Assembly: GCA_902605365.1 (NCBI GenBank)
Contig: CACLCM010000004.1
Location: 1,471 to 65,470 of the forward strand
DNA from: an uncultured Candidatus Poseidoniales archaeon
GTDB lineage: Archaea; Thermoplasmatota; Poseidoniia; Poseidoniales; Poseidoniaceae
Direction: 5' to 3'
Length of the DNA: 64,000 nucleotides
Part shown: piece by piece, positions 7,619 through 64,000 of the stretch
How the letters are laid out: every line of letters begins with the position of its first letter
How positions within the stretch are numbered: the stretch's first letter is position 1
Position numbers and translations under genes: made by a program
Notes under the pieces: model-generated
The model's database searches: none
What the model was told of the DNA's origin: nothing
Seen by the model: only the letters and a program-made list of their open reading frames with translations

Positions 7619-8347
7619 ATGGGAGTTATTGATTCGGCCAAGAAACTCTCTCAGTCCTGCGATTCTCTAACGAAGTCTATCCTAAGACAGACGAATCTTG
7701 CACATGTTACAAATCCACTGAATTATGCATGGGAATATCATGAATCATACCTTTCGCAATATTCAGGACTTGGAGCCAAGACTTTGATGCTCGGAATGAA
7801 CCCTGGCCCATACGGTATGGCACAATGTGGAGTCCCCTTTGGAGCCACACATATCGCTAGAGATTTCTTGAAGATAACTGGAGAAATTACCGACCCTGAA
7901 GGGCGACATCCGAAACGTCCGATTATAGGATTAGATTTTGAGCGACAAGAAGTTAGTGGAACTAGAATTTGGGGCCTTCTAAAACAAATCTGGGATACAC
8001 CTGAAAATATTCACAAAAACGTGTTTTTGGTTAACCATTGCCCGCTACTCTTACTCGGCGAAACTGGTAAGAATATCACTCCCGACAAAATCAGTGGAAA
8101 TGCGGTTAAAAAGTTGTTAAAAGCATGTGATGAACATTTGCGTGAAGTAGTAATTGAGCTTGGAATTACGAGAGTTATTGGAATAGGAAAGTATGCTGAA
8201 AAGAGAGCGCAGTTGGCTCTTAGCGACCTCGATGTTGAGATAACAACCTGTTGGCATCCTTCACCCGCATCTCCGCTTGCAAACCGTAATGAAGGAGCCG
8301 ATTGGCGTGCAAATGTCACCAAGGTTCTGCTGGGAGAGCATTCATAA
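7619..8347 (+). CDS. SMUG1-family (family 3) uracil-DNA glycosylase
   Basis: GMNPGPYGMAQCGVPFG, EVSG, NHCPL, HPSP. Confidence 0.9.
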   Translation: MGVIDSAKKLSQSCDSLTKSILRQTNLAHVTNPLNYAWEYHESYLSQYSGLGAKTLMLGMNPGPYGMAQCGVPFGATHIARDFLKITGEITDPEGRHPKRPIIGLDFERQEVSGTRIWGLLKQIWDTPENIHKNVFLVNHCPLLLLGETGKNITPDKISGNAVKKLLKACDEHLREVVIELGITRVIGIGKYAEKRAQLALSDLDVEITTCWHPSPASPLANRNEGADWRANVTKVLLGEHS

Positions 8348-8370
8348 TCAATACCGCCCCCCACAATTTT

Positions 8371-19984: not shown

Positions 19985-20043
19985 TCGGATTGCCCTATCA
20001 TGAATGGTGCCAAACCTATGCCTTGCGCACGCACACGCGAGGC

Positions 20044-29000: not shown

Positions 29001-32000
29001 TAGTTCAGGAATAACCAACAGCGCTGCTTTGCCTTGTGGACTAAATTTCAATCCAAACAATGGTGCCATAACTGGTTCTCCTACCAACGGATGTACAGAT
29101 ACGGCAAATGAGACCTATACAATTACTGTAAACCTCGGTTCCTCATCATACGCATGGAGTAGAAGTCAATCATTTGAGGTAACATTCGGAATAAGTCCTG
29201 CATTACCTGTTGTTTCATACAACCCTGCAGATACTACCCAGTCCTACACTAGAGGTGTGGCGATCACTCCAATTGCCCCAACTGGAATTACGAACAGTGC
29301 AAACCTGCACCACTTTACCACATATCCGCCTCTACCGGCTGGATTATCGGTAAATAGTACAGGACACATTACTGGTACGCCAACTGCAAACCAAAGCACT
29401 GCAACCTTCAAGGTGAAGTCATGTAACAGTTGGAATGTATGTAGTACGGGTGTTCCGTTTACAATTACCATTGACGAACCTGCACCTGTGATTTCTTACC
29501 CTGATTCAGAATATGAATTCTTCAAGGATGTACCAATCACTCCAGTCGTACCAACAAGTACTGGTGGAGTTCCTTCCTCATGGGAGGTATCTCCAGACCT
29601 ACCGACCGGTATGAGTTTGAGAGGCGATGGTGCAATCATAGGAATTCCATTCGTGGATTCACCTGCAACAAACTACACAATCTATGCTAACAATAGTGGT
29701 GGAACTGGAACTGAAGTAATTGAAATTACAATTAATGGAACTGGTGTATTCATCAATTACCCATACAATACTGCAGAATTGGCACAATACTCGCCAATGA
29801 TGGCTTTGTATCCATCTACATCTGGAGCTGCTGTTGTTTCATGGACTATTGAACCAGCACTACCTAGTGGCATATTCTTCGGAACAAACAATGGTACAAT
29901 TTGGGGAACTCCAAACACTCTGACCGAGAGTACTGTGTACACAATCAATGCAACAGGAGTTGAGGACTATGGAATCTCAACTGTGACCATATCTGTTCTC
30001 CTAGATACAGACCTGGACTCAATACCTGACGTCAATGATGACGATATTGATGGAGATGGCTGGTCCAACATTGATGAGATAAATTGTCAAACCGATGAAA
30101 TGGATGAATCATCCTATCCAAGTGACATTGACCAAGATAAGATCTGTGACCTGCTTGATACAAGTGACGACAGAGCAATCATTGTCATCTACATGAAGGA
30201 TAGCGTCGAATTAGCTAATGATTCAGCAATGAACTCACTAATTCCAATTACAGCAGGTGGAGACATTGACACTTGGGAGATTTATCCTGCATTGCCTCTT
30301 GGACTAGACTTCAATGGAACAATGCCTGGTCGCTCTACAACTGACACGGGTACAATTTCGGGAACGCCTACTGAACTCAGTGCTGCTACCGTATACACTA
30401 TCTGGGCTAACAACACAAACTCTGGACAGAGTGGTTCATTCCAGATTACTTTGAGTGTATTGCTCGATTCTGATGGCGATGGCACACCTGACGTCTATGA
30501 TGATGACATGGATGGCGACGGATGGTCTAACGAAATGGAGAATCTCTGTGGAGAAGACCCTGTTGATGCATCCAGCACTCCAATCGATACCGATGGAGAT
30601 GGTCTGTGTAATTACATCGACAGCGATGATGACAATGATACATTCATTGACACAGATGAAATCATGTGTAACTCTGATTCAGAAGACCAATTCTCTGTAC
30701 CAATCGATGATGACAACGATGGAATCTGTGATGCTCTGCAATCTGATAGAGACCTTGACGGATGGGCAGATGGCCCTGAAGAATCATGTGGCTCTGACCC
30801 AGATGATGCATCCAGTGTACCTGTTGATTCTGATGGCGACATGATCTGTGATTCACAAGATGATGACAGAGATGGCGATTATGTAGGAAACAACGTTGAC
30901 GACTTCCCGGATGACCGTTCTGCTTCAAAGGATACTGATGGCGATGGTAAGCCTGACTCACTGTCAGGAACATCAACATCAGACCCACAATTGGTTGAAG
31001 ACTTTGATGACGATGATGACAACTGGGAAGATTACAAGGAATCCGAGTGTGGTACAGACCCACTCGATGAATCTGACTTCCCTACTGACTCAGATGGAGA
31101 TGGTGAATGTGACGCTCTAGAAGACGACACTGATGGTGATGGATTTTCTGATGCTGAAGATGCATTCCCACTGGATAGTAGCGAATGGCTAGATACAGAT
31201 GGTGACGAAGTTGGTGACAATGCTGACGAAGATGACGATGGAGACACATGGTCTGACGCTGATGAAGAGAGATGTGGTTCTGACAGTCTTAATGCAGAAA
31301 GTATCCCAGAAAACATTGAGGATGAAACCACCTGTGTAACTGTCAAGACTGAATCTAAGGATGACGATGACGACAGCAGTTCCTCCACAATGTGGTGGAT
31401 TTGCGTCTGCTTCCCATTACTACTACTGCTGCTTCTGATACCACTAATATATTGGTCCAGAGAAAAGGGAGAGTCCCTAATGGTACTTGTTGGAATGAAG
31501 AACGGACCTGAACCTGAACACACTACTGCAAGGCCTAACTTTGTCAGTGGAAGTGGAACAAAGAACGACCCGTTCGTGCTTAAACCAGGACACGTCGAAA
31601 ACTTTGGAGACAGTTGTGAAAGTAAGGAAACTATCACTATCACAAACCTAGACCCTGAATCTCTGATAACAATCACAGATATGGCATCGCACACAAACCG
31701 TGGTCGATTCAATATGGATTCTATCCTAGTAGAAGGCAACTCTGATGATAAGGGCAGTGGCGCAATTGTCTTCACATTGAAGTTTGATGATAATGTAACT
31801 GAAGACGATGTTAGTGGAGTTTACAACGGCCAAATCAGAATCGGTAGTGCATCTGTTTACATCCTTTGGGAAGTAAAGGTTGGAGACCCTGAGGCCGATG
31901 AACTAGCAGAAGCTGATAGAAGAGCCAAGGAATTGAAGGCCCAAGAAGACGCTGAGAGGAAGGCAATCAAGGAAGCTGAAGCAAAGGATAAGGCTGACAA

Positions 32001-34840: not shown

Positions 34841-37800
34841 TCACATGTTACGGCGATACTGTCCACCGACAGCAAACAGTGCATCAGTAATTTGACCAAG
34901 TGAAGCAACCTTGGAAGTTTCCATCAATTCCTCGAATACATTGCCGCCTTCTCTAGCGACCTGCTGTAATCTACTGAGTGCCTCTTCATCGCGAGGAATT
35001 GCCTGAGTTCTCTCAAGACATGCTTGTTTCTCATCAGGGTTAGCACGAGCAAGTTCCATGTCGAACTCGTCTGCGGAATCTTCGTCGAAGTCTGTAGCAT
35101 TTGGATTCAGGAATGTGTTTACACCAATGATAGGTAGTGTTCCATCGTGCTTGAGGTGTTCGTAGTACATGCTTTCATCTTGGATCTTACCACGCTGATA
35201 CATTGTTTCCATAGCACCAAGAACACCGCCTCTGCGAGATAGTGCTTCGAATTCCTGAAGAACTGCTTCCTCAACCAAGTCGGTTAACTCCTCTACGATG
35301 AATGAACCCTGCATAGGGTTCTCCGTCTTTGTCCAACCGCTTTCTTTGTTCACAATCAACTGAATTGCGAGTGCCCTTCTAACCGACTCTTCAGTTGGTG
35401 TAGTAATCGCTTCATCATACGCATTGGTGTGCAGTGAGTTAGCATTGTCCTGAATTGCCAATAATGCTTGCAAGGTAGTACGAATATCATTGAAATCAAT
35501 CTCTTGGGCGTGAAGGCTTCTACCACTGGTCTGAATGTGATACTTGAGCTTCTGACTGCGAGCGTCTGCACCATACAAATCACGCATGGTTACTGCCCAT
35601 ATACGGCGAGCAACTCTTCCAATGACCGTGTATTCTGGGTCTAGGCCATTAGAGAAGAAGAACGAGAGATTTGGTGCAAATTCTGCTACATCCATTCCTC
35701 TGCTTCGGTAATACTCAACATAGGTGAAACCGTTTGCAAGAGTTAGTGCCAACTGTGTAATTGGGTTTGCACCTGCTTCTGCGATGTGGTAGCCGGAAAT
35801 TGAAACCGAGTAGTGGTTGCGTACTCCGTTATCGATGTAGTACTGCTGAACATCTCCCATCATCTTGAGAGCGAAAGGTGTTGAGAAGATACAGGTGTTT
35901 TGGGCTTGATCTTCTTTGAGAATATCAGCCTGAACTGTTCCTCTAACTGTCTGAAGAGTCTTTGCTTTGATTTCTGCATATGTAGCTGCATCTACCATTT
36001 CGTCTCCTCTCTTTCCGACTGTTACAAGACCGAATCCATTGTGACCTTCTGGCAAATCACCACGGTAGCCACTAGCATCTGCTTCTAATTGCAGATGCTT
36101 CTCGACTTGTTGGTCGATTGCTGCATTGAGATAGAATGCAAGAATCACTGGAGCTGGTCCATTGATTGTCATTGAAACTGAGGTATTTGCGTCACACAAA
36201 TCAAATCCAGAATAAAGACGCTTAGCGTCATCTATGCTAGCGATAGAAACACCGGAGTTACCGACCTTACCCCAAATATCTGGGCGACGGTCAGGGTCAC
36301 GCCCATACAGAGTTACACTGTCGAAAGCGGTAGAAAGGCGAACGTAATCTTGGCCTTGTGAAAGAAGGTGGAAGCGACGGTTTGTCCTCTCCCCCTCGCC
36401 TTCTCCGGCAAACATACGAGCACTCAACTCATCGGTTCGCTTGAATGGGAATACTCCTGCTGTGAATGGGAAATGTCCTGGGGCATTCTCTCTTGATATC
36501 CAATTGTACATGTCTCCATCATCGGAATACTTCGGAAGTGCGACACGAGGGATCATCTGATGAGACAAGGATTCAGTAACTGTTGAAACTGTGAATGGCT
36601 TTCCACGAACATAGTAGGTGAATTCGCCACTGGAATATTGCTCTGCCAAATCTCTGAAATCTGAAACGACTTGACTTGCTTCTGCAATCTCTTCACGTAA
36701 TTCCGCTAGATGCTCCTCAACCTCACTCTTGATTGAAGGCAACTCTTTGCTTGCTGTCTCAAGATGTTGCATTACTCGCAACTTCTCTGCAACACTGCCA
36801 TTTTGTGAATGGTAATCGCGAACAACTGAGGATATCTCTGAAAGATAATGCACACGCTCAGGAGGGATTACTCCCTTGCGCTCTCCAATTACACCAATCG
36901 GCTCACTTGCATTGAAATCAACCATTGCGGCTAATTTCTGCCATAGAACATCCACACCGGGGTCTGCAAATTGACTAGCTATTGTAGCAACTACGGGGAG
37001 TTCCAAATCTTCGACATCAAACATGTTACGATTGCGTCTAACTTGTTTTCGAATTGCACGCAGTGCATCTTCACTGCCTCTCTTTTCGTACTTGTTTAGC
37101 ACGACTAAGTCCGCTACATCGAGCATCTCGATTTTCTCTAACTGAGTATGAGCACCGAACTCTGCAGTCATGACATACAATGAACGGTCTGAAACAGTAG
37201 TAATCGCATCACTACCTTGTCCAATTCCGCTTGTCTCACAGAAGATTAAATCGAAGCCAACAGCCTTTGCGGCCTCGATTGCTCTATCGAGGTTAGCACT
37301 GATTTCTGAACCGCTACCTCTGCTCGCTAAAGAGCGCATGAAGAGGTTGTTATTGGAAAGTGAATTCATTCTGATACGGTCGCCTAGTAAAGCACCACCT
37401 GTTCGCTTTCTAGTTGGGTCAACACAGAGTAAGCATACTTTCTTGTCGGGGTTGTCACGAAGAATTCGCAGCATTAATTCGTCCAACAAACTGCTCTTTC
37501 CTGCACCACCTGTACCTGTAAAACCGATTACTGGGACTTCAGAATCGCTAGAGCGAACCTTGTTGAGAGTCTCTTTGAATTCATCATCACTTGCAGATTC
37601 TGATAGAGTCATCAGAAGACCTACTTTGGCCATATCATTCGCCGTAATCGGTCCATCGAGACTTGCTATTCTACTGCCTGCAATCAAGTCGACCTCGCTC
37701 GCAGTACCCATCAAATCGTGAATCATTCCCATTAGTCCCATCTTTCGGCCATCATCTGGAGAATATATTTTGGAAATACCACTCTTGTGTAAATCTCTAA

Positions 37801-38134
37801 TTTCAGGAGGAGTAATTGTTCCACCGCCGCCGCCAAAGATGCGGATGTGCTCACAGCCTGCTTCATCTAGCAATTGACGAATGTAGGTGAAGTACTCCAT
37901 GTGTCCACCTTGGTACGAAGTCAAAGCAACTGCATGTGCGTCTTCCTGAACTGCACAATCGACTACATCTTTCGCCGATCTATCGTGTCCAAGGTGAATA
38001 ACTTCAGCTCCGCTGCTCTGAATCAAACGTCGCATGACGTTAATCGCTGCATCATGACCATCGAATAGGCTTGCAGCAGTGATAACACGAACCGGACCGG
38101 TCGTAGTTTCAAACACCGGCGCCTCCTCCGACAT
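34841..38134 (-). CDS. icmF: Fused isobutyryl-CoA mutase / MeaB-like GTPase (B12-dependent)
   Basis: B12-binding SLFDGHDAAIN, P-loop GTGGAGKSS, GALLGDRIRMN, mutase RMFAGEG, RLSTAFD, HIQTSGRSL. Confidence 0.93.
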   Translation of the reverse strand: MSEEAPVFETTTGPVRVITAASLFDGHDAAINVMRRLIQSSGAEVIHLGHDRSAKDVVDCAVQEDAHAVALTSYQGGHMEYFTYIRQLLDEAGCEHIRIFGGGGGTITPPEIRDLHKSGISKIYSPDDGRKMGLMGMIHDLMGTASEVDLIAGSRIASLDGPITANDMAKVGLLMTLSESASDDEFKETLNKVRSSDSEVPVIGFTGTGGAGKSSLLDELMLRILRDNPDKKVCLLCVDPTRKRTGGALLGDRIRMNSLSNNNLFMRSLASRGSGSEISANLDRAIEAAKAVGFDLIFCETSGIGQGSDAITTVSDRSLYVMTAEFGAHTQLEKIEMLDVADLVVLNKYEKRGSEDALRAIRKQVRRNRNMFDVEDLELPVVATIASQFADPGVDVLWQKLAAMVDFNASEPIGVIGERKGVIPPERVHYLSEISSVVRDYHSQNGSVAEKLRVMQHLETASKELPSIKSEVEEHLAELREEIAEASQVVSDFRDLAEQYSSGEFTYYVRGKPFTVSTVTESLSHQMIPRVALPKYSDDGDMYNWISRENAPGHFPFTAGVFPFKRTDELSARMFAGEGEGERTNRRFHLLSQGQDYVRLSTAFDSVTLYGRDPDRRPDIWGKVGNSGVSIASIDDAKRLYSGFDLCDANTSVSMTINGPAPVILAFYLNAAIDQQVEKHLQLEADASGYRGDLPEGHNGFGLVTVGKRGDEMVDAATYAEIKAKTLQTVRGTVQADILKEDQAQNTCIFSTPFALKMMGDVQQYYIDNGVRNHYSVSISGYHIAEAGANPITQLALTLANGFTYVEYYRSRGMDVAEFAPNLSFFFSNGLDPEYTVIGRVARRIWAVTMRDLYGADARSQKLKYHIQTSGRSLHAQEIDFNDIRTTLQALLAIQDNANSLHTNAYDEAITTPTEESVRRALAIQLIVNKESGWTKTENPMQGSFIVEELTDLVEEAVLQEFEALSRRGGVLGAMETMYQRGKIQDESMYYEHLKHDGTLPIIGVNTFLNPNATDFDEDSADEFDMELARANPDEKQACLERTQAIPRDEEALSRLQQVAREGGNVFEELMETSKVASLGQITDALFAVGGQYRRNM

Positions 38135-38224
38135 GCTCCTACGGAGCATACATTCGTTCATCATGATACCGTTGTAATCAAAGGCCTAGAAGTGGGTGCG
38201 AGTTGTATGCGGCCCCGTTGGATA

Positions 38225-51962: not shown

Positions 51963-54900
51963 ATGCGAGCAATAGCACTTGTTGGCCTACTGGTTTTATC
52001 TTCATTTGGTTCTGTCGCTGCTTGGCAACCCCAAAGCGTAGACGGAGAGACTATTGGACTTCGTAATGGAGACGTAGAATCCATTCCAATTCAGCAATTC
52101 CCAGATGTATCACACTCTGGTTTTTGGATGCTGACCCATGAATATCCCGTTCCTAGCGAATGGGTGCATGAACTTGCAGCAGCAGGTATTGAGTGCTGGT
52201 CATTTCTACCATCCTCTGCTTTCCATTGCGAATTGAATGGACATACCACATCTGAGTTGGCTAAACTTGATGTCAATGGAATGATCGAAATGCCGCCTTC
52301 TGCAAAACTACATCCTGACCTAATGCCATCTCTGAAGGGAGAAATGGAATCTTGGTTCATCGCTAAAGGTATAGGAGTTGTAAGTGTGGTTTTGTCAGGA
52401 GATGAATTACCTGAGGGAATCGAAGATAGAAGTGATGTTGAAGTAATGTCACATAGCTGGAGATGGGCCACTGTTGAAGTTAGAATTAGTGGAGTAGAAT
52501 GGCTGATTCAGCAATCAGAGGTTGAGTGGATTGAACCTCAGTTCGAAAAGGTTCTATTGAACGATGAGGCTGATGCTGTAATCGGTGCAACCGTATTACA
52601 GGACGCTACTCAAATGGCTGGAATTAACTCTGCTTGGAATGCATTAGATGGTACAGGAATTATCGTCACGGTTTCAGATACGGGATTGGATAATGGCGTA
52701 AACAACACCAATATGCACCCTGATTTCAGAGACCACATAGTAGGCATTCACTCCTACGGCATCCCATCAGGAATGCAAAGTTATGCTAACGCACCTTACG
52801 AAGATGGTGCTTCTGACCTCGATAGTGGACACGGAACTCACGTAGCAGGCTCTGTACTAGGGGATGGAACTCAATCCTCAGGTTCTATCAAAGGAATTGC
52901 TCCTGAAGCAAGACTCTACATGCAGGCTACTGAAGTGTGGACCGATTGGACTACATCTGTAGAAAACACATACGGATATACTGATGATTACACTTTGATG
53001 GGCATACCAGACGACTTGAGCGACATGTTTGATGATGCTGTTGCAAATGGCTCTAACATACATACCAATTCGTGGGGATCATCAGTTGCTGGACAATATA
53101 CCTCCAATTCCATGCAGGCCGACCATTCGGCAAGAAATCACACAGGATTGTTGATATTATTCGCAGCAGCGAATGAAGGAACAGATGGTAACAGTGACGG
53201 AGAAGTAGACCTAGATAGCATGGGTGCGCCTGCTACTGCGAAGAACGTTCTAACAGTAGGTGCATCTGAAAATAACCGAGGTTCAACGATTTCCTCTCAG
53301 TGGGGACAATGGTGGCCTGGAGACTATCCAGCTGACCCGATTAATTCCGATAAGATAGCAAATAATACCGAGGGATTGGCCGCATTCTCAAGCCGTGGAC
53401 CTGTCGATGACGGGAGAGTGAAACCTGATGTTTCAGCGCCTGGAACATTCATTCTTTCAGCAAAGAGTCGCTCAACAACACAAACAGGATGGGGCGCTCA
53501 CTCAAATTCAGATTACACCTTCATGGGAGGAACAAGTATGGCGACTCCTATTACTGCAGGAGCATCAGCATTATTGTATCAGCATCTAATTGACAATTTA
53601 GCTCACACAACCCCTACTAGCGCTCTAGTCAAAGGGATAATTGCAGCTAGCGCTCACGACATGACTGGCCAGTACGGTTCATCTAGCAATGGCGCTGGTG
53701 AAACTGCACCTAACAACCACGAAGGATGGGGTCTTCTAGACCTTGACCGTGCAGTAAATACCACATGGGTAGATGATGAATCGGTTAGCACAGGAGATTC
53801 TAGAAGTTGGAAATTTACAGTCCCAGCAAGCGCTCCTGACCTCAAGGTAATGGTGTCATGGACTGACCCAGCAAGTACACCTGCAGCATCGGTAAATTTG
53901 GTTAATGATATCGACTTTGCAGTTAAGGACCCTAATGGTAACTGGGTAGAATATGGAAACAATCTCGACAACCTGATTGGTACAACTATCTCATCTCCGA
54001 TGTCTGGACAGTGGGAGGTTCACGTAAATGGAACCAATATCCCTACTGGGCCACAATCCTTTGCAATGGTTATCGATGCCCCTTATTCTATGATAAATAT
54101 GTCAGCGGATGCCGATGGTGACGGAATAATTGACACTCTTGATGACTGTCCAAATACAGCAGGAACATCTACTCAAGACCAAACTGGGTGCCCGGATGGC
54201 GATGGAGATGGATGGTCCAATGTTGGAGATGATTTCCCTAACGAAGGAACGCAATGGGCCGATTCTGATAGTGATGGATTTGGTGATAACCCAGGCGGAG
54301 TCAATCCTGACTCCTGCACATCTGTAGCAGGTACATCCAGTGGCGATAGATATGGCTGCCCAGATTCTGATTCCGATTCATGGTCAGACCCTGATGGTGG
54401 ATGGACTGCAATTCAAGGAGCTGATGCTTGCGATTCGGTCTGGGGTAATTCCTCCCTTGACAGAAATGGTTGTCCTGACGCTGATGGCGATAGCCAATCT
54501 GACCTAAATGACATTCTTGTTAACGACCCAAGCCAATGGCTGGATACTGACGGAGATACCTATTATGACAATGCTAATCCCGCTACAAATTGGGATGACT
54601 GCCCGGCAATTTGGGGTAATTCAACTATTGATTTACAAGGATGTCTTGACAGTGATGGAGATGGCATGTCTGATGCTAATGATCAATGGCCAAACGACCC
54701 TACAAAGTCTAATGATACCGATGGTGACGGCGTTGCAGATAGTGAAGATGATTGTCCAAACTTTGCAGGTAACTCCACTTGGATTTTAGTTGGATGCCTA
54801 GATGCAGATGGCGATGGTAGAACTGTTGACCACGATGCTTTTCCTGCAGATCAAACTCAGTGGAACGACACAGATGGTGACGGATTTGGGGATGAGCCAA

Positions 54901-56657
54901 CTGGTAACCTAGCTGACGATTGCGTAAACACAGCAGGCGACTCTTGGCAAAATGGAACTCTTGGTTGCCCTGATTTAGATGGTGATGGTTGGGCAGATTC
55001 AGAAGATAGTTTCACCAATGATTCTACCCAATGGCAGGATGATGATGGTGACGGATTTGGAGACAATATAATTGGCAATAATCACGATTCATGTATAGGA
55101 ATCTGGGGTAATTCAACAAAAGGTGGAATGCTAGGTTGTATCGATACTGATGGCGATGGATGGGCAGACATGATTGATGCACTGCCAAATGACCCTACTC
55201 AACATGAAGACCAAGATGGTGATGGATACGGAGACAATATTACAGGTAACAATGCCGATGATTGTCCACTAACATTTGGAAATTCAACAATCGACCGACT
55301 TGGATGTGTGGATACCGATGGCGATGGCCACTCCGACCTAAACGATGACTTCCCACTAGACCCTACTAGGTATCTCGATACGGATGGAGACGGATATGAT
55401 GATGTCGAAGACGACTGTTTTGAGACTGCAGGAACTTCAACCAACGGCTCCTTAGGATGCTTTGATGCAGACCAGGACTCATGGGCAGATTTAGATGATT
55501 CATTCCCACTAGACAACACACAGTGGAACGATACAGATAATGATGGATTTGGAGATAATGCAGAAGGAACCACACCGGATTCATGCCCCTCACAATTTGG
55601 AAACAGTAGTTCAGATACGTTCGGTTGTACAGATACTGATGGCGATTCATGGTCAGATTCAGGAGATGCATTCCCTTCAGACATTAGCGAGTGGTCAGAT
55701 AATGACTCTGATGGATTTGGAGATAATATCGATAATTGCCCGCTAGTTGCTGGAAATTCCACCAATGGTAGCATTGGATGTTTGGATGACGATGGGGACT
55801 CATGGTCTAACAATAACGACTTCCTTCCATCAGACCCGACCCAGTGGCTAGATACTGATGGTGACGGCTATGGTGACAATCCGACTGGTACTGACGGAGA
55901 CCAATGCCCATCTGCAGCAGGAACTGCTACTCTGGACTTACTGGGTTGTCCAGACAATGACTTGGACGGTTGGTCAAACATTGGAGATGCTTTCCCAGAG
56001 CACAGAACACAATACGAAGACAATGATGGTGATGGATACGGAGACAATAATTCACCCGGAGCTGAATTACCAGACCACTGGCCTGAAGACCCTTCACGTA
56101 ACACTGCGGAAGTATTGCTATCTTGCGACCCTAATGAATTCGAAAGAGATCTAGCGAGTGATTCAAGCCTTACATTTACTTGTACGATAACAAATATGAT
56201 CCAAAATGATCTAACCGTGGTAGTTGAATGGAAATTGATGAATGCAATAGATGCTGGGGTCAGAAGACACATTCTGGTTATACCTGGAAATGAAAATGAT
56301 ACTGTAGCATTCTCTGGACAAGTTGTAGAGAAAGGGGACATCTCATCAGTAATTGATGCCAGCGAACCGGGTGCTGAGTCTTCTATGGCTATCACTGTAA
56401 TTTCAATAAAAGCAATCAATTCTGATGACGGTGATACATTCGATGACCTGCTAGAGCAAACTAAGGATGTTCCACATATTCAAGAAATAATAGCCGTAAG
56501 TCTTGCACTAATTCTAGGATTATTCCTTGTGATAAACGGTAGAAGAAACTCAAAACGTAGAAAATCAGAGCGTTTGGCGCACATAAACAGATTGAGAGCG
56601 GACAGATTCGTAATTGACGAAAACAGTATGATTGGCGGACCTCCTCCTAGATTCTAA
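51963..56657 (+). CDS. Membrane-anchored S8 subtilase with long TSP3-like Ca-binding repeat stalk
   Basis: Catalytic triad DTGLD, HGTHVAG, GTSMATP; many DxDGDG/GCPD repeats; C-terminal TM. Confidence 0.93.
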   Translation: MRAIALVGLLVLSSFGSVAAWQPQSVDGETIGLRNGDVESIPIQQFPDVSHSGFWMLTHEYPVPSEWVHELAAAGIECWSFLPSSAFHCELNGHTTSELAKLDVNGMIEMPPSAKLHPDLMPSLKGEMESWFIAKGIGVVSVVLSGDELPEGIEDRSDVEVMSHSWRWATVEVRISGVEWLIQQSEVEWIEPQFEKVLLNDEADAVIGATVLQDATQMAGINSAWNALDGTGIIVTVSDTGLDNGVNNTNMHPDFRDHIVGIHSYGIPSGMQSYANAPYEDGASDLDSGHGTHVAGSVLGDGTQSSGSIKGIAPEARLYMQATEVWTDWTTSVENTYGYTDDYTLMGIPDDLSDMFDDAVANGSNIHTNSWGSSVAGQYTSNSMQADHSARNHTGLLILFAAANEGTDGNSDGEVDLDSMGAPATAKNVLTVGASENNRGSTISSQWGQWWPGDYPADPINSDKIANNTEGLAAFSSRGPVDDGRVKPDVSAPGTFILSAKSRSTTQTGWGAHSNSDYTFMGGTSMATPITAGASALLYQHLIDNLAHTTPTSALVKGIIAASAHDMTGQYGSSSNGAGETAPNNHEGWGLLDLDRAVNTTWVDDESVSTGDSRSWKFTVPASAPDLKVMVSWTDPASTPAASVNLVNDIDFAVKDPNGNWVEYGNNLDNLIGTTISSPMSGQWEVHVNGTNIPTGPQSFAMVIDAPYSMINMSADADGDGIIDTLDDCPNTAGTSTQDQTGCPDGDGDGWSNVGDDFPNEGTQWADSDSDGFGDNPGGVNPDSCTSVAGTSSGDRYGCPDSDSDSWSDPDGGWTAIQGADACDSVWGNSSLDRNGCPDADGDSQSDLNDILVNDPSQWLDTDGDTYYDNANPATNWDDCPAIWGNSTIDLQGCLDSDGDGMSDANDQWPNDPTKSNDTDGDGVADSEDDCPNFAGNSTWILVGCLDADGDGRTVDHDAFPADQTQWNDTDGDGFGDEPTGNLADDCVNTAGDSWQNGTLGCPDLDGDGWADSEDSFTNDSTQWQDDDGDGFGDNIIGNNHDSCIGIWGNSTKGGMLGCIDTDGDGWADMIDALPNDPTQHEDQDGDGYGDNITGNNADDCPLTFGNSTIDRLGCVDTDGDGHSDLNDDFPLDPTRYLDTDGDGYDDVEDDCFETAGTSTNGSLGCFDADQDSWADLDDSFPLDNTQWNDTDNDGFGDNAEGTTPDSCPSQFGNSSSDTFGCTDTDGDSWSDSGDAFPSDISEWSDNDSDGFGDNIDNCPLVAGNSTNGSIGCLDDDGDSWSNNNDFLPSDPTQWLDTDGDGYGDNPTGTDGDQCPSAAGTATLDLLGCPDNDLDGWSNIGDAFPEHRTQYEDNDGDGYGDNNSPGAELPDHWPEDPSRNTAEVLLSCDPNEFERDLASDSSLTFTCTITNMIQNDLTVVVEWKLMNAIDAGVRRHILVIPGNENDTVAFSGQVVEKGDISSVIDASEPGAESSMAITVISIKAINSDDGDTFDDLLEQTKDVPHIQEIIAVSLALILGLFLVINGRRNSKRRKSERLAHINRLRADRFVIDENSMIGGPPPRF

Positions 56658-56701
56658 GACCGAATCGCCTAAGAAGAGGACGCACTCCGACAGAATATTA
56701 C

Positions 56702-56773
56702 GCGGATATGGTGAAGTGGTTATCACCTGAGGTTTCCAACCTCATGTCGTGGGTTCGATTCCCGCTATCCGCA
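56702..56773 (+). tRNA. tRNA-Gly (TCC)
   Basis: Acceptor stem GCGGATA/TATCCGC, anticodon arm TGAGG-TTTCCAA-CCTCA, T arm GTGGG-TTCGATT-CCCGC. Confidence 0.95.
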
Positions 56774-56854
56774 TCCACTTTCAATGAATCATGCTAATTT
56801 TTATTTTAGCAATCTCCCCATATGTTGATGAGTAACGGAATATGCGCGTAGCGC

Positions 56855-58259
56855 ATGAACCGTCATCTAACGGCGTTAATCCTAACCGGATTATTCGTGA
56901 TTGCTCCATTATCGGGATGCTTTGGCGAGGAGGAACAGAAATCGATAGACCCTGCAGGATCGTTACAAATCGATTTCGTTAATCCCGAAGATGCAGTTTT
57001 GCGAGCAGGTGAGTTTCATGATTTCACTCTGGTGGGTGAAGGTAATTCGATAGCAACTCAGCCAGATGTTTTGATATTCATTAACGGGACTTATGTGAAA
57101 AGTCACATGGTTGTGGTTGAAGATAATACAGTATATGGTCAACTATTAACAACGCCTTACACCGATGAAGTTAGCATAGCATTCATGAGTAGTGATGGAC
57201 AAACTGAAGCACTAAGCGTTTCGATTACAAATGGAACTCCAATCGTTAACGGCGAAGAATGGTTTAGAAAAATTGACTTCATCACAAGTACTTGTACTGA
57301 CACAACGAAATGTGGAGGATACATAAATCGCTGGATGGGCGCTGGGAATCTAGCCTTTGAGCGTGCAGCTGAATATTTCAAAGGTCATTTCGAAGGGCTT
57401 GGATATGAAACTCACTTGCTTAGAGTCACAGACCATGGTAACCTAGCACAACCAGAAAGCCTCAATGTCATCGCTTGGAAGCAAGGCCGCAACGATAACT
57501 GCGTTCAAGGAATGGGTGGACACATGGACATCGCACCACCAGGTGGGCCTCCAGGAGGAGGAACTTACGAAGGAGCTTATGACAACACGGCAGGTACTGT
57601 TGCGATGATGTTGTATGCCCGTGCTTTCGCAGACTTAACTTTCGAATGTGACACATTCCTGGCACTATGGTCCAGTGAAGAAGAAGGACTACGCGGTTCT
57701 AACGCCTTTGCTAACAACAACTGTGACTATTGTTTGCCTCAAGACAAAGAACTTGAGTTCTACATTAACATGGACATGATGGGAATGTCTTGGCCTGCAG
57801 TCAAATCAAACGGCGATCCTTTCCCTTATCATGCATGGTCAGGACCTGATGCAGACCCAGAAGTACAGGATGTTGCAATTACAACCGTTCTGGATGACGT
57901 ACATTTCAACATTTTAAAAGCTCCAAGAGACCTCAGAATTGAAGGCTCTTATGGAGCAGGTTGTGACCAGCATTGGGATGACCATTACAACCTCGTAATG
58001 GATGTTCATGAAGACACATTTGGACGCTCAGACCATGTAACATTCCGTGAGTTGGGGGGCACAAACCATTTTCCATCTAGGCGCATATGATGAGGATTAT
58101 GATGCATACCACTCCCCCTCAGATACTCTAGATAACATGGTTGCAGAAGTAGGTGGCCAGGAAGAGTTGGAGAAGAGCATGGAGTTCGTAATGTGGGCGG
58201 CAATGCTTGAATTCATCATAGCCGACCAAACCCCTGAGATTAGGAACTTGAACGCTTGA
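56855..58259 (+). pseudogene. M28 metallopeptidase lipoprotein split by a +1 frameshift (or a sequencing error)
   Basis: Lipobox LSGC, GHMD, GAYDN, SEEEG, INMDM, SDH. The YHSPSDT tail is in another frame after G6 at 58054-58059. Confidence 0.8.
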
Positions 58260-58268
58260 GGTGTGATA

Positions 58269-58436
58269 ATGGTTGAAGCTATTGGGGAAATAGTGGCTGC
58301 GATTGGAGATTCTGTTGTCAAAGATAGTGAATTTATGAACACCAAGAGTGAGACTAAATCCATTATTGTTAGAGTTCTATACTATCTAGTTCCAATTTCA
58401 CTATTGGTAGGGTTCTACGTTTGGACTGTCTACTAA
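58269..58436 (+). CDS. 55-aa single-TM protein not in the ORF track
   Basis: GAGGTG SD; MVEAIGEIVAAIGDSVV...IIVRVLYYLVPISLLVGFYVWTVY. Confidence 0.6.
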   Translation: MVEAIGEIVAAIGDSVVKDSEFMNTKSETKSIIVRVLYYLVPISLLVGFYVWTVY

Positions 58437-58528
58437 CTAACACCGGCAACTCAAGCCATGTTATTATGGCCAAGGACTATGATAGAATCAGACAATGCTT
58501 TTTGTAGTCCATCAACTCGAACATTAGC

Positions 58529-58972
58529 ATGGAGGAAGAAGTTACTGCGAGCGGCATAGAAGAAAAGCAGCCACGAAAGTTGTGGAAAATTGTTGCTAGT
58601 TCTTCTGTAATCGCCTCCATGTGTTGTCTTCCATCTGTAGTGCTGGTAATGTTTGGCATTGCAACTGTATCGACTGGCGCCGCACTATCTGACACACTAT
58701 ACTGGGGCGAAGATGGATATTCATGGTTCAGACCTTTGATGCTCGCAATTGCTGCAATAACTGTATGCGTGGGGCTGTTCTTTTACTTCAGGAGTCAAGG
58801 AATTTGCACCATAGACCAGGCTAAGCGTGAACGCAGAAAAATCATCAATACATCGATACTAATCATCATCATCTCTTACCTTAGTTACCTATTGCTAAAT
58901 TATGTAATCCTAACAGAAATTGGAATTCTATTCGGCCTACCTTGGGAATCGAGTAGAGTTTGGAACAAATGA
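58529..58972 (+). CDS. MerT-like small membrane protein
   Basis: TM1 with vicinal cysteines (ASMCCLP), RP at the start of TM2, Cys in the loop, three TMs. Confidence 0.55.
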   Translation: MEEEVTASGIEEKQPRKLWKIVASSSVIASMCCLPSVVLVMFGIATVSTGAALSDTLYWGEDGYSWFRPLMLAIAAITVCVGLFFYFRSQGICTIDQAKRERRKIINTSILIIIISYLSYLLLNYVILTEIGILFGLPWESSRVWNK

Positions 58973-58973
58973 T

Positions 58974-59663
58974 TCACACATTGTTCCTGGTAGTATTACA
59001 ACCAACACCCCAAGACTCACCAGACTGCATAGCAATTCTTGTTTGTTGCAACAAATCATCTTCAGCGCTTGCAGGGTCATCTCCTGCATTTCTCCATGAA
59101 ACAGAAACCATCTGGTCCTCATGAATAAATGATTCAACTTGGTAATTCTCAAGAATAATATCTCTAGGATTGAGATTCATCCCCCTCCTCTCTGCTTTTT
59201 GCACGGCCTCTTTGGCCGTCCATATTCGAATTGCTTGGTCGGGATTTGATTTCAACCAATCTAATTCCTCACCCTTAGCAATCATATCAAATGCATTTTC
59301 TTGAATGCCTCTATCCTTGGGCTCAGCATCTATTCCAATCCAGAACCCTGGCTCGATTACAGCGCATACAGCCCATTCACCTGAATGGCCGATACTTATT
59401 CCGGGCAAAGGAGTATTTCTCCAAATTCCGTCTAACCATGAAAGGTATGGAGCTCTCTCATCAGTGCGTAAGACCTCTATTGAATCAAGGGGAATTCCCC
59501 ATTCATTCAAGCATTCTTCTAGAAGAAGCCTTCCTGAATTGTGGTCTGCGATTCTTTTCGTATTAGCACGGGGTATTTCATCTGCAAGAGAACTAATGCA
59601 ATTCTCAATACGCCTACGAGCGATTAGCATTCGTGGACCCGAAACAGGATCCATCTTTTCCAT
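58974..59663 (-). CDS. Sfp-type 4'-phosphopantetheinyl transferase
   Basis: GRLLL, APYL, ISIGHS, IGIDAE, WTAKEAVQK. SD GAGGTGA lies in the last codons of the PKS gene. Confidence 0.9.
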   Translation of the reverse strand: MEKMDPVSGPRMLIARRRIENCISSLADEIPRANTKRIADHNSGRLLLEECLNEWGIPLDSIEVLRTDERAPYLSWLDGIWRNTPLPGISIGHSGEWAVCAVIEPGFWIGIDAEPKDRGIQENAFDMIAKGEELDWLKSNPDQAIRIWTAKEAVQKAERRGMNLNPRDIILENYQVESFIHEDQMVSVSWRNAGDDPASAEDDLLQQTRIAMQSGESWGVGCNTTRNNV

Positions 59664-59667
59664 ACAA

Positions 59668-62600
59668 TCACCTCTCGAGTGTGAACCTTTGGTCTTCAGG
59701 AACTTGCCCCATAGCCTTGAGTCTCAATCCTTTGAGCGATAATACCGGAGCATCATCATCACCAACGATTACGACATCGTGAACAGTTACACCCGCATCT
59801 TCTGAAGCGACCTTAACTGAACGCATTCGAAGTCTTTCGTTAGATTCAGGAACTCGTAACATTGTAGTCCACTCGATTCCTATTGGCAAACTGGAGAAAC
59901 CATCGCTCTCCATAGCGGCTAAGCCTGCGTTTTGGAATCCTGCTTCTATCAGCATAGGTAATGCATCTAGTAGTATTTCTTCGCCTTCACTTTCCAAAGC
60001 AAATTGGTCGGTTGCTGGGAGTTGATGTCTCATCAGTGCGATTCCATCAACGCCATTGTCAATTCCGCGAAGAACACCTCCGTGTGATTGGAATCTTGGA
60101 CCATGGAAATATCTGAGGTAGATGAAACTCGAGTGATGCAATAATTCGCCATCAGCAGGAGTTCCAATCGTAGGTAATGCATCAACCTCATTCTGAAGGA
60201 ATGGAAGTAGATCATCACTTGAAGTAACCAATCTGACCTTGGCTTCATGATGAAGTCGTGGCTCACCAAAGATTTCTCCTTTAGAATTGACCAAATCAGA
60301 AACTAAACGGCAACTCACCCAACTTAAATCACCATCTTTTCTTTCTAACTTGGCTTCTACTCGAACTGTCATTGAGCCTTTCATTATCTTAATCGGCAAG
60401 CCAAATGTTACGTCTTCAAATCCAGCAATACAATGTTCTGGTAATAGCAACAGAGAGTTCTCTGCAAACATTTCCATGGCCATTACTCCTGGATGATATG
60501 GCACACCATCGATTGCATGGTCGACCAAGAACGGATGGTCTTGGGTCGAAAGTGTGCATTGTGAGACCAAGGCTTTTCCAACATCAAGAGAAATTAATTT
60601 GTCAATTAGAGGGAAACGACGAGGGTCAGCAATAGATGCCGCCATCTCTGCTGGTAATTTCAATGGAGCTTCTCTGAAAGAGTCAAACCTGTCCATTAGA
60701 CCTAATGACCCACATCCAAGTACTCTCCTCTTCCCACCTGCAAGAGCCTCACCAACAAATATCTCAACCCCCTTCTCTACTGCTAATGTTTCGATTCCTG
60801 CAGATTCGAATACCGCTTCAATTGAACCTCTTGTGGCCATACCAACATCTCTCCAACCTGTCCACCCAATTGCGACTGCTCGGCAATCCCCACTTGCGGT
60901 CAGTCGAGCCATCTCTGCATCTAGAATTGAATTGGCAGCAGCATAATCTGTCTGACCACCATTTCCAAAGCGTCCAGCAACGCTTGTGAATGCACATGCA
61001 AATCGTAAATCGTCTCCAACTGCAGAGACAAGTGCTTTCCAGCCATCTACTTTCACACGCACAATCAAATCGAAAGTTTTCCATTCTTTGTCCGCAACTA
61101 ATTTTGATTCTTCCAGTCCTGCGCCATGGACGATTCCTGTGACGCTCCTTCCACCTACTGCTGCAATTATTGCATCAGAGTCAGTTACGTCTGCAGAATG
61201 GTACTCGGCATTGTTACCGCCTGACTCTATCACGCTGATAGTACGATAAATGTCCATGCTCCTAGTCAATTTAGTCCAGGCATTATTCCATTCTACCATC
61301 GTTATCTTGCCACTTTCCGATTCAGATATCATTGACTCACGAAGTTCCATCTTTCTAGTGTTGAGTTGCTCATCACTCCAATCAAGCCAAGTCGAAGTTT
61401 CTTCCTCAAGTTTACTTCTTCCAAGCAACAAGAAGGTTGCACCTGCTCCTTGGCTGGCGTTTGATACTCCGATTATCGAAGCGGCTGTAACACCAGAACC
61501 GCCTCCACTGACAATCCAAATATCATCCGATTCTAGAGATTTCACTTCATCAACAATATCTTCAGCAAAGCAAACTAATGTCCATCTTCTACCGTCTCTA
61601 TCGATTCCAACTTCAACGTCGCCACCAGAACTGAACATATCATTCTCGATTAATTCAGCTGCCGCTTCAGCATCAATAATCAATTCAGGGTGTAAGTCTA
61701 GGGCACGGCATCTGAGGTTTTCACGCTCAAACGCATATGATTTGGTCACACCACTGGCTGCACAGGCAAGTGAGTTGAATCTCTCTCCACGGTTTCCATG
61801 CCTTCCATCCATAGCGGTAACGCTTCCAATGATACCTGATGAAATCACTGCTAATTGTGAATCTAATCCTTTGAGTAATCCAAACCAGGATTGTGCTGCA
61901 AGTGTTACTTGGTTTGAAGGACCTTTAGATTCCCATGAACTTCCAGTAAGAGATAGTGGTGCTAAGTGAATGACTCCGGCAACTCCGGTTATTCTGGAAC
62001 ATATTTCTGAAATTTGTTCTTCGCTACTAGGGTCTGCTCTGTAAGTATGACCAGACAATTCTTCTTGCTCGGTTACCGACTTAGCACCGAACTCGAAGCC
62101 GATTTTAGCAATCGAGAGACCTTTTTCGCTTAGTCTGAGAGCTAATGCATCTGCAACTCCCCAACTATCTTGAGTGAGAACAATGGTTCCACCAATTGGC
62201 AATCCTTCTGCAACTGCGGGACAGGGCTCGACTTCAACCTGCCATCGCCTAGTCGTTGAACTTGCATGAGTTGGTGTGGAAGGTGTTGAAACGGGTGCTA
62301 CTTCGCTAACTGGTTCCGGTTCAGGAGTTGGTACTGGTTCAGAAGAACCCCCTCCTGTCATTTTCTGAATATATGCTACGAAATGATTCAGTGTAGGATG
62401 GTCTGAAAGTACGAAGTCCTCATCTACAGGTAATGAGAATATTTCTCTCACATCACCCATAATTTCAGCCTGTTTGACAGTATCAATTCCAAGTTCTCCC
62501 TCGAGGTCTTGGTCCATCTCGATAAAATCTTCAGGATAACCAGTATGTTTCACGACAACTCCAATCAACTTAGGCTGAATATCTGATGAGCCAACAGATT

Positions 62601-64000
62601 CTACCGGCTTTGCAATTATCGCCGGCTCTGGATTTACGGCTACTTCCAAAGGTTTGCTTACTTCTGTTTCAACTACTGGAGTTGGTGCAGTAGGAGTTGG
62701 ATTGCTTCCACCTTTCATTTTCTGAATATAGCCAATCATATGATTGAGAGTTGGATAATCTGACAATACGAAATCTTCGTCTACAGGCAACCCAAATTTA
62801 GTACGGATATCCGCCATTATTTCTGCTTGCTTGACCGTATCGATTCCGAGTTCACCCTCTAGGTCTTGGTCAAGTTCAACAAAGTCTGCAGGATAACCTG
62901 TGTGCTTTACAACAACCTCGATTACCACAGCGTTTAGATCTCCAGATATATTCTGTTGCGGGACTTTATCTTCGACTACTACCGGCTCTGGAGCGTCAAC
63001 AACTACCGGCTCTGGAGTAACAACTGCAATTGCAGGAGCTGCAACTGTTGTGGTGTTCTTCGGAACTGCATATTCCTCACCTTGGATTCCTCCATGTAGA
63101 TTATTTTCTCCATCCACATATGCAACTAATTTGTTTTGAAGAATACGTAATTCGATATTAGGAGTACCTGCCAGCGACTGGTTCCAAGTCAGTAATTTTT
63201 GGCGATTAATCCGGTCGCCAGAAAATTCACACTTTCTAACTAATGACAATCCAATTTGGCTACCAAACCCTGCTGCAAAGCGCATTCCGTACCTTAGTTC
63301 TGGATATGACCCTCCCTTGGATAAGTTCAGATTACCCAATTCCGGGTCTGCTTCTTTGTGATTAGCAATCGGAGGAATTTTCCCAGTCATTAGACCGTAG
63401 AACATTGAAGCACTTTCAATTCCAACACCCATTGGGTGTCCGGTGAAACCTTTGGTATTGGCGATAACTATCGAATCTGTACTCGCTCCAAACGTATCCC
63501 TCAGTGCCTTAACTTCGGCTTGTGCCGAGCCTCCTCTTGCAGGAGTGAAAGTTTCATGGGAAAAGAACACTGTTTCTGGAGCAATCTTGTGACGGTCAAG
63601 CCCCCACCTAGTTTCCATCTCTCCGATGAAACTGTCTACAGTGGAAGCCACGTGTTCCACGTCTAATCTAGTACCATGGAATGCTGAGTTTGCAATTTTA
63701 GTTCCGAGTAATTCAGCCATTGGCTGAACTCCTCTAGCATCTGATTGAGATTTCCTTTCTACAACGAATGCCGCTGCACCCATACCTAGAATCAAGCCGT
63801 TTCGACGTTTGTCGAAGGGCAGTGCTGTTTCTTCGATGACATTGCTAGTGGCTGCTGCGCCACTAGAAGCGAATCCTGAGCCAATCCATTCCCACATGTC
63901 ATCTCCAGTGACATCATCTGCAGAGATTATTACTACACGGTCACAACGGTCTGTAGCCAGCCAATCCTCGGCCACACCAAATGCTGCTGTTGCAGAAGCA
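59668..64000 (-). CDS. Multidomain type I PKS/FAS-like protein (KS-ACP-ACP-KR-DH), 5' end outside window
   Basis: Frame open to the edge (ASATAAFG). KS: PFDKRRNG..GMG, HETFT, NTKGFTGH, AGFG. Two ACPs: DLEGELGIDTVKQAE. KR: GGGSGV, HGAG, QTDYAAAN. DH: HAIDGVPYHP, FHGPRFQ. Confidence 0.9.
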   Translation of the reverse strand, partial: ASATAAFGVAEDWLATDRCDRVVIISADDVTGDDMWEWIGSGFASSGAAATSNVIEETALPFDKRRNGLILGMGAAAFVVERKSQSDARGVQPMAELLGTKIANSAFHGTRLDVEHVASTVDSFIGEMETRWGLDRHKIAPETVFFSHETFTPARGGSAQAEVKALRDTFGASTDSIVIANTKGFTGHPMGVGIESASMFYGLMTGKIPPIANHKEADPELGNLNLSKGGSYPELRYGMRFAAGFGSQIGLSLVRKCEFSGDRINRQKLLTWNQSLAGTPNIELRILQNKLVAYVDGENNLHGGIQGEEYAVPKNTTTVAAPAIAVVTPEPVVVDAPEPVVVEDKVPQQNISGDLNAVVIEVVVKHTGYPADFVELDQDLEGELGIDTVKQAEIMADIRTKFGLPVDEDFVLSDYPTLNHMIGYIQKMKGGSNPTPTAPTPVVETEVSKPLEVAVNPEPAIIAKPVESVGSSDIQPKLIGVVVKHTGYPEDFIEMDQDLEGELGIDTVKQAEIMGDVREIFSLPVDEDFVLSDHPTLNHFVAYIQKMTGGGSSEPVPTPEPEPVSEVAPVSTPSTPTHASSTTRRWQVEVEPCPAVAEGLPIGGTIVLTQDSWGVADALALRLSEKGLSIAKIGFEFGAKSVTEQEELSGHTYRADPSSEEQISEICSRITGVAGVIHLAPLSLTGSSWESKGPSNQVTLAAQSWFGLLKGLDSQLAVISSGIIGSVTAMDGRHGNRGERFNSLACAASGVTKSYAFERENLRCRALDLHPELIIDAEAAAELIENDMFSSGGDVEVGIDRDGRRWTLVCFAEDIVDEVKSLESDDIWIVSGGGSGVTAASIIGVSNASQGAGATFLLLGRSKLEEETSTWLDWSDEQLNTRKMELRESMISESESGKITMVEWNNAWTKLTRSMDIYRTISVIESGGNNAEYHSADVTDSDAIIAAVGGRSVTGIVHGAGLEESKLVADKEWKTFDLIVRVKVDGWKALVSAVGDDLRFACAFTSVAGRFGNGGQTDYAAANSILDAEMARLTASGDCRAVAIGWTGWRDVGMATRGSIEAVFESAGIETLAVEKGVEIFVGEALAGGKRRVLGCGSLGLMDRFDSFREAPLKLPAEMAASIADPRRFPLIDKLISLDVGKALVSQCTLSTQDHPFLVDHAIDGVPYHPGVMAMEMFAENSLLLLPEHCIAGFEDVTFGLPIKIMKGSMTVRVEAKLERKDGDLSWVSCRLVSDLVNSKGEIFGEPRLHHEAKVRLVTSSDDLLPFLQNEVDALPTIGTPADGELLHHSSFIYLRYFHGPRFQSHGGVLRGIDNGVDGIALMRHQLPATDQFALESEGEEILLDALPMLIEAGFQNAGLAAMESDGFSSLPIGIEWTTMLRVPESNERLRMRSVKVASEDAGVTVHDVVIVGDDDAPVLSLKGLRLKAMGQVPEDQRFTLER

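Follow-up and report, generated by a model that had tools for sequence, protein, structure and literature searches.

The subject of this analysis is a three-gene operon, a putative fatty-acyl synthase system with threonine at the cofactor sites of its carrier domains, in an uncultured Candidatus Poseidoniales archaeon of Marine Group II (GenBank assembly GCA_902605365.1, here genome G000). It lies at one end of a 64,000-nucleotide stretch of contig CACLCM010000004.1 (G000:C4:1471-65470), which is the whole stretch analysed and is called the window below; the contig is 91,794 bases long and extends past the window end. Along the coding strand, a FabI-like gene is followed by a type I megasynthase and then by a phosphopantetheinyl transferase (PPTase). 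The PPTase open reading frame (ORF) encodes 229 amino acids (58974-59663, minus strand), while the synthase frame is 5'-open at the window end (59668-63999, minus strand), with 1,443 amino acids inside the window. The whole synthase gene occupies C4:61138-69435 and encodes 2,765 amino acids, with 3,965 bases beyond the window, to window-equivalent position 67965. Homologue starts align with a Met three codons inside the annotated synthase start. The stop codon of the fabI-like gene overlaps that annotated start or precedes the start by a few bases, and the spacer between the synthase stop and the PPTase ATG is 4 nucleotides, as had been noted in an earlier reading of the window from its letters alone (hereafter the sequence-only reading). 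The features are as follows, with those numbered by residue referring to the full synthase protein.

58974-59663, minus strand: Sfp-type PPTase gene (P0002); Pfam ACPS 43.9 bits, cut-off 25.
59668-64000, continuing to window-equivalent 67965 (C4:69435), minus strand: megasynthase, C-terminal 1,443 amino acids (P0003); from ORF, translation, Pfam and NCBIfam.
59686-60618, minus strand: dehydratase (DH) of polyketide synthase (PKS) type; PKS_DH_N and PS-DH matches, motifs DHAIDGVPYHP and EAGFQ.
60766-62163, minus strand: ketoreductase (KR); Pfam KR 76.6-78.2 bits, GGGSGVT loop.
62353-62586, minus strand: second acyl carrier protein domain (ACP2); second PP-binding stretch, Thr1829 codon ACT at 62479-62481.
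62710-62943, minus strand: first acyl carrier protein domain (ACP1); PP-binding 53-55 bits, Thr1710 codon ACG at 62836-62838.
63166-64000, continuing to window-equivalent 64623, minus strand: second ketosynthase (KS2), FabF-like; TIGR03150 and PDB FabF alignments.
Residues about 1115-1600: KS2 in protein numbering.
Residues about 1010-1095: degenerate ACP-like stretch (L002:6300-6560, minus strand, just beyond the window).
Residues 625-960: acyltransferase (AT); GHSLGE and HAFH.
Residues 23-480: first ketosynthase (KS1), PfaA-like; DAACASS, HGTST and GHLK.

Pfam and NCBIfam matches over the full protein give the domain order KS1-AT-(degenerate ACP)-KS2-ACP-ACP-KR-DH, and the Pfam scan finds no enoyl reductase (ER) domain built into the megasynthase. 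The PPTase and the domains of fatty acid synthase (FAS) or PKS type that the sequence-only reading had reported are real: Pfam recognizes ACPS, two PP-binding domains, KR, PKS_DH_N and PS-DH, and there is a divergent KS. The further statement that the KS runs straight into the ACPs with no AT, unlike PfaA, does not survive extension to the whole gene. A PfaA-like KS1 and a malonyl-type AT precede KS2 outside the window, and the AT appeared to be absent because the window end cuts the synthase gene. The AT motifs GHSLGE and HAFH form what we take to be the malonyl-type pattern.

KS2 matches the FabF model TIGR03150 with 128 bits, far under the equivalog cut-off, and its Cys, His and His line up with those of FabF structures in the PDB. 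All three strings given by the sequence-only reading (HETFT, TKGFTGH and EAGFQ) are present as written, with His1470 in SHETFTP and Lys1505 and His1510 in NTKGFTGH. The catalytic Cys, of which that reading could see at most one base, is encoded by TGT at 64000-64002 (Cys1322), with the last T alone inside the window. Residues C1322, H1470, E1471, T1472, K1505 and H1510 are invariant across 62 family representatives. An identification of KS2 as a chain length factor (CLF) was considered and rejected on the basis of Cys1322 and the invariant Cys, His, Lys and His in these representatives; since it keeps all four, KS2 is a ketosynthase. The KR catalytic residues K2305, S2328, Y2341 and N2345 show 90% conservation or more in the 62 sequences. 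In the DH, the His lies in an HxxxGxxxxP motif (DHAIDGVPYHP) and the acid position in EAGFQ. Both motifs, together with the catalytic motifs of KS1, AT, KS2 and KR, are kept in 12/12 aligned members, among them a locus titled Elusimicrobium minutum.

The linker between AT and KS2 (TGYPAKF...LGMSDSEIQ) resembles the ACP part of the PfaA model only faintly (13 bits, E 0.006), with Asp as the site residue and a motif that varies among relatives. It is treated here as a putative vestigial ACP. At the same place, some distant members, for example P0148, P0151 and P0169, carry a proper Thr-type ACP.

Both intact ACPs read LGIDTVKQAEIM (GIDTV), which places Thr at the phosphopantetheine site. The PF00550 score is above the cut-off, yet the canonical Ser of the DSL motif, at the start of helix II, is replaced by Thr in both copies. 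In alignments, the Thr falls on the Ser that carries phosphopantetheine in the PigH ACPs and in AcpM; in structure 9rgb, that residue is printed as X, not Ser. The two copies use different codons, ACG for Thr1710 and ACT for Thr1829. The sequence-only reading overlooked this replacement, the most unusual feature of the locus.

Relatives were gathered by scanning species genomes with a KS2 peptide (SHET[YF]TPAR) and a KS1 peptide, which gave 80 named loci among the matches listed, and from a representative library in which 540 clusters match KS2 at E<=1e-30. Of 62 cluster representatives, 58 have Thr alone, two have Ser alone, none is mixed and two have no match to the strict pattern; these last two have Thr under a looser pattern. 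Counted by domain, there are 179 Thr and 9 Ser. In the 80 listed loci, the corresponding numbers are 70, zero and zero, with 10 lacking an ACP match (mostly where a contig end cuts the gene), and all 207 domains carry Thr. Within the order, Ser is found in G033 and G030, and Thr in G026, G027 and G028. The four Ser rows on an unrooted KS2 tree of 132 rows amount to three changes, each nested among Thr relatives. Thr at the cofactor site is a family-wide hallmark, from which Ser arose about three times. Four copies from one family of the order (f3), L015 (from G033), L016 (from G030), L014 and L039, also read SHEP.TPPRG in KS2 in place of the otherwise invariant SHET.TPARG, and two of the four have both ACPs changed from Thr to Ser.

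The PPTase has the ACPS domain and the metal-binding and catalytic motifs of the Sfp-type family (PF01648). Alignment to Sfp (1qr0) is weak (E 0.018) but places IGHSGEW, IGIDAE and WTAKEAVQK in register, and H93, D112, E114, W148, K151, E152 and K156 are kept in 36-38 of 38 relatives that accompany Thr-type synthases. Gly161 (at about 59181-59183, just past WxxKEAxxK) is a single conserved column that stands out, being present in 38/38 Thr-type PPTases and replaced by Val or Ser in 2/3 Ser-type ones, although three Ser-type cases are too few for this contrast to carry weight. Apart from the locus itself, the PPTase lies downstream of the synthase in 15 of 20 related Marine Group II-type loci, and the remaining five break off within the synthase. 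In the family at large, 37 of 86 loci have a PPTase that is fused to the synthase or located within 3 kb (4 fused, 33 adjacent), and a W..KE[AS]..K motif near the C-terminus, as in a fused PPTase, occurs in 31 of the 62 representatives. Most Acidobacteriota and Actinomycetota loci have no PPTase within 3 kb.

With no Ser at the cofactor site, it might be supposed that the carriers are dead, and that the synthase is a relic in decay or serves some purpose other than biosynthesis. Thr in both ACPs would fit this, and so would the behavior of E. coli ACP, in which the Ser-to-Thr exchange S36T reportedly blocks modification by AcpS. Decay is difficult to reconcile with intact frames of 2,700-3,050 amino acids in more than 100 genomes, in which all catalytic motifs are kept, or with near-universal Thr, encoded here by two different codons. 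The swap to Ser occurs as a whole-protein state and is never mixed. A PPTase with intact motifs stands beside the synthase, and no PF01648 PPTase was found in the five synthase-less genomes checked (93-97% complete). Loss of carrier function is thus highly improbable. It may be that Thr is a working hydroxyl under selection, because Ser and Thr are one base apart and Thr is nonetheless near-universal and never mixed with Ser within a protein.

The third component of the operon, the FabI-like protein, has 267 amino acids and a Tyr-x6-Lys pair. Its top NCBIfam matches are all FabI models, and Pfam adh_short_C2 scores 225.6 bits. By phmmer, the gene lies directly upstream of the synthase in 21/21 Marine Group II-type loci with upstream flank, against 1/66 other loci.

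The synthase resembles a family catalogued by Shulse & Allen (2011, PLoS One 6:e20146, PMC3098273) in bacteria as the Type R secondary lipid synthase, in which a single pfaA homologue has the order KS-MAT-'CLF'-ACP(3-6)-KR (MAT, malonyl-type acyltransferase) and a PPTase is found downstream. That paper gives the Type R product as unknown and lists as hosts Koribacter, Solibacter, Elusimicrobium minutum and Roseiflexus; the words "archaea", "threonine" and "serine" do not occur in it. The present locus has the order KS-MAT-second KS-tandem ACPs-KR, the downstream PPTase and homology to a listed species. This homology is to locus L095, titled Elusimicrobium minutum, which is a metagenome bin and not strain Pei191; the 80 loci omit Koribacter, Solibacter and Roseiflexus, and include relatives from their phyla. 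L095 is 39% identical over residues 23-2730 and has all catalytic motifs in common, along with four Thr-type ACPs and a PPTase ORF 14 bases downstream. The titles of the 80 loci include Poseidoniales, Thermoplasmata, Heimdallarchaeota, Elusimicrobium minutum, Acidobacteriota, Chloroflexota, Actinomycetota, Myxococcota and others, and some of the 540 clusters are named Asgard, Heimdallarchaeota, Thermoplasmatota, Polyangiaceae and Bradymonadaceae. PMC7472256 mentions a PKS with a KS resembling those of polyunsaturated fatty acid (PUFA) synthases in a Heimdallarchaeota bin.

Judged by its sequence, the synthase is an archaeal variant of this catalogued but uncharacterized family, marked by a fixed FabI. 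It shares with Type R the single pfaA homologue, the KS-MAT-'CLF'-ACPs-KR arrangement and the downstream PPTase. It differs in its archaeal host, in having two ACPs where the Type R paper reports 3-6 (close relatives have 2-5 as read from their alignment and 2-4 by motif counts), in a "CLF" that bears Cys, His and His, in the PKS-type DH after the KR, and in the fabI gene fixed upstream, which is a trait of the archaeal clade alone. In literature searches that covered few subscription journals, we found no work on Type R later than the 2011 paper, no description of this synthase in Marine Group II and no report of Thr phosphopantetheinylation. What is new, and testable, is the Thr carrier site throughout the family.

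Other systems are less close. The PfaA model TIGR02813 is the best NCBIfam match, with 871 bits over KS1-AT against a cut-off of 1010, so that the protein falls outside PfaA as the model delimits it. As in the PfaABCDE system, KR and a PKS-type DH come after tandem ACPs, and a dedicated PPTase is needed. Unlike PfaA, there is an extra KS between AT and the ACPs, no PfaB, PfaC or PfaD partner in the locus and Thr in the ACPs; the reductase is FabI-like rather than PfaD-type, and the FabA-type DH is absent from 5/5 genomes searched (described below). Enediyne PKSs (PKSE) have the layout KS-AT-ACP-KR-DH-PPTase and make a polyene. Relative to that layout, the present synthase is likewise predicted to be iterative, with KR and DH but no built-in ER and with a PPTase of its own, and is unlike it in the second KS, the tandem ACPs, the Thr site and the lack of enediyne cassette genes nearby. 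Finally, KS2 is closest to FabF and the upstream gene closest to FabI, as in bacterial type II FAS. Here, in contrast, all functions but the ER are fused, the scores are far under the equivalog cut-offs, and the five genomes have no free ACP, no FabZ or FabA and no further strong KS.

An enzyme of a typically bacterial kind in a metagenome bin that is 60% complete naturally raises the question of whether the DNA is bacterial, through contamination, a chimeric contig or very recent transfer. The evidence runs strongly the other way. The three genes occur in the same order, with the same TatD-like and TBP-like neighbors, in other genomes of the order, and the contig also bears an Rrp4-like exosome protein, an HMG-CoA synthase and the TBP-like gene. 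The absence of mobility genes and of a compositional break, which the sequence-only reading had reported, is borne out by a scan of 18 neighboring ORFs, none of which is a mobility gene, and by a flat guanine-cytosine content (0.43-0.45 at the locus, 0.42-0.45 for most contigs). DNA contigs from two other studies cover 30/30 bins of 56000-64000, and one of 2,135 bases spans 58699-60833, joining the PPTase to the synthase on one side and to the flanking gene on the other, which argues against a chimera. Among the best 120 database relatives, every named one is a Poseidoniales or euryarchaeote bin, the nearest named ones all being Poseidoniales, and the best bacterial relatives among the listed loci are only about 29-45% identical. 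On the unrooted KS2 tree, the Poseidoniales group in a single clade (100% support) that has a long branch, is not nested in any bacterial phylum and is separate from the sequences of Thermoplasmata and Heimdall bins. Because its backbone lacks resolution and it has no root, the tree does not serve to name a gene donor or a direction of transfer. A bacterial origin of the DNA in any of these senses is hardly credible.

The gene is also widespread in the order. A query with the full protein finds it in 23 of 24 genomes of the same genus, in 2/2 of family f2 and in 6/14 of f3. With the KS2 query (E<=1e-30 for presence), 128 of 201 genomes of the order are positive, nearly always with one match per genome: 95/99 in the same family (f1), 2/2 in f2 and 30/99 in f3. 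Among high-quality genomes, 46/61 are positive. The absences in f3 are clean by genus (g5 0/13, g7 0/15, g8 0/9, g10 0/14, g23 0/12 and g24 0/4). The conclusion that the operon is resident in the Poseidoniales chromosome and vertically inherited holds. The overall interpretation of the sequence-only reading therefore stands in part: the locus is a resident and conserved archaeal one, with recurrent gene order, independent DNA contigs and wide presence in the order, while the atypical order without an AT falls away. RNA-library contigs from two studies align to parts of the gene with 95-99% identity, covering 17/30 and 16/30 bins. These contigs are assembled and carry no strand, level or single-transcript information, and the uncovered bins have no meaning; the matches are no more than a hint of expression.

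A search for other carrier-dependent systems was made in five genomes: G000 itself and four others with 91-96% completeness. None has a PP-binding domain outside the synthase, and FabA/FabZ is absent from all five. Each has exactly one PF01648 PPTase, always beside the synthase, and the strong KS matches are the two KS domains of the synthase itself. The operon is the only carrier-protein-dependent acyl-chain machinery in the five genomes searched. Each genome has 1-4 acyl-CoA carboxyltransferase matches, and the four near-complete ones have three or four each, so a supply of malonyl-CoA is feasible.

Taken together, the fabI-like gene, the 2,765-amino acid iterative type I synthase and the Sfp-type PPTase probably constitute a self-contained fatty-acyl synthase with Thr-anchored carriers. 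The self-contained, iterative character follows from the combination of loading, condensation, ketoreduction, dehydration and enoyl reduction functions with a PPTase of its own. In such a model, the linked PPTase would place phosphopantetheine on Thr1710 and Thr1829, and the AT, to judge from its motifs, would load malonyl units onto the arm. The two KS domains, each with a full Cys-His-His set, would extend the chain and probably each handle a different range of chain lengths, as is said of the KS domains in PUFA synthases. The KR and DH would then process the beta-keto group and the FabI-like protein would reduce the enoyl intermediate in trans, which from the gene content may give a largely saturated acyl chain. 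As no thioesterase is encoded, release could perhaps be carried out by PlsC-type acyltransferases encoded elsewhere in the genome.

Several points weigh against this model. We know of no precedent for phosphopantetheinylation of Thr, and the reported behavior of E. coli ACP S36T is unfavorable as well. No measured product, activity or modification was found in the literature for this gene or any Type R member. The best NCBIfam score of the FabI-like protein, 219 bits, is under the FabI equivalog cut-offs of 299-477. As bacterial members of the family have no reductase linked to them, an unsaturated product may be ancestral. For RNA, the evidence is relatives' assembled contigs rather than stranded reads, and DNA carry-over is possible. 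With regard to a core membrane role in particular, the KS2 query did not find the synthase in six f3 genera (0/67 genomes), so its product is dispensable for part of the order, and the operon includes no acyltransferase and no thioesterase or other release enzyme. PlsC-type genes are present in 5/5 genomes with the synthase and in 5/5 without it; a link between PlsC and the synthase by co-occurrence was tried and rejected, since PlsC is present regardless.

Some of these same points would suit a different product, namely a specialized, non-membrane "secondary lipid" (a polyene, hydroxy or very long chain) in place of ordinary membrane fatty acids. The spread of the family, by record names, through Acidobacteriota, Chloroflexota, Actinomycetota, Elusimicrobiota and Myxococcota points in this direction, as do the presence of KR and DH without a built-in ER, reminiscent of the polyene-making PKSE, the lack of the gene in the 67 genomes from six genera of the same order, the uncoupled PlsC and the lack of an acyltransferase or thioesterase in the operon. 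Against it, the FabI-like gene that is fixed upstream in the Marine Group II-type loci and in almost none of the others completes the reductive cycle, and because the five genomes have no other ACP, KS or FabZ, there is no primary synthase to which this one could be secondary. A secondary lipid is on balance rather unlikely, although it is the alternative to be taken most seriously, and the self-contained fatty-acyl synthase remains the preferred reading.

A broader proposition may be put forward more tentatively. It is possible, if still doubtful, that Type R synthases attach phosphopantetheine to Thr and so represent the first natural family of Thr carriers, and that in Poseidoniaceae such a synthase, with a recruited FabI, serves as the sole FAS and is the missing source of acyl chains for the mixed archaeal/bacterial membranes proposed for Marine Group II. 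If so, Thr may insulate the system, such that only its own PPTase activates it, or may stabilize the linkage. Modification of Thr would widen the rule that phosphopantetheine is carried on Ser, and could offer an orthogonal carrier/PPTase pair for engineering.

To our knowledge, there is no culture of Marine Group II. PMC6461757 describes the group as the archaea most abundant in surface-ocean plankton and finds the archaeal glycerol-1-phosphate enzyme encoded in 0/270 genomes; according to PMC6962369, intact polar glycerol dialkyl glycerol tetraethers were not found where Marine Group II dominate. Possible mixed membranes of the group are discussed in PMC6461757 and PMC13037920, and the passages of the two papers on this subject do not name this megasynthase. 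For the proposed fatty-acid or mixed membranes, the conserved, self-contained synthase offers a defined enzyme that can be put to the test. The copies in bins titled Heimdallarchaeota, Asgard and Thermoplasmata also bear on how acyl lipids could have been acquired by archaea and, if the broader proposition above is right, those in the Heimdallarchaeota and Asgard bins bear on the lipid divide in the origin of eukaryotes.

Other features of the contig may be mentioned briefly. Upstream of fabI, at L002:10353-11510 (minus strand), is a predicted membrane-anchored protein of 385 amino acids with a Lys-rich stretch and a strongly acidic tail of D/F repeats; it has no Pfam match, and a protein of similar size is located at the same place in G006. 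Three giant ORFs are probably cell-surface proteins: one of 4,288 amino acids at 19990-32856 (plus strand), one of 1,564 amino acids with a subtilase domain at 51963-56657, and, beyond the window at L002:13722-19586, one of 1,954 amino acids with a C-terminal membrane anchor. A tRNA-Gly(TCC) gene at 56702-56773 (plus strand) accounts for a depth spike and for loose contig ends at 56702 and 56773 in all four runs. At 34841-38164 (minus strand), a protein of 1,107 amino acids is an IcmF-like fusion of B12-binding, MeaB GTPase and methylmalonyl-CoA mutase regions, and the same contig encodes an acyl-CoA ligase (8302-10272) and the HMG-CoA synthase (5945-7510). RNA recognition motif (RRM) domains are uncommon in archaea, and a protein of 476 amino acids at 2774-4204 (plus strand) has two RRM motifs (113 bits) joined to an exosome Rrp4 N-terminal region.

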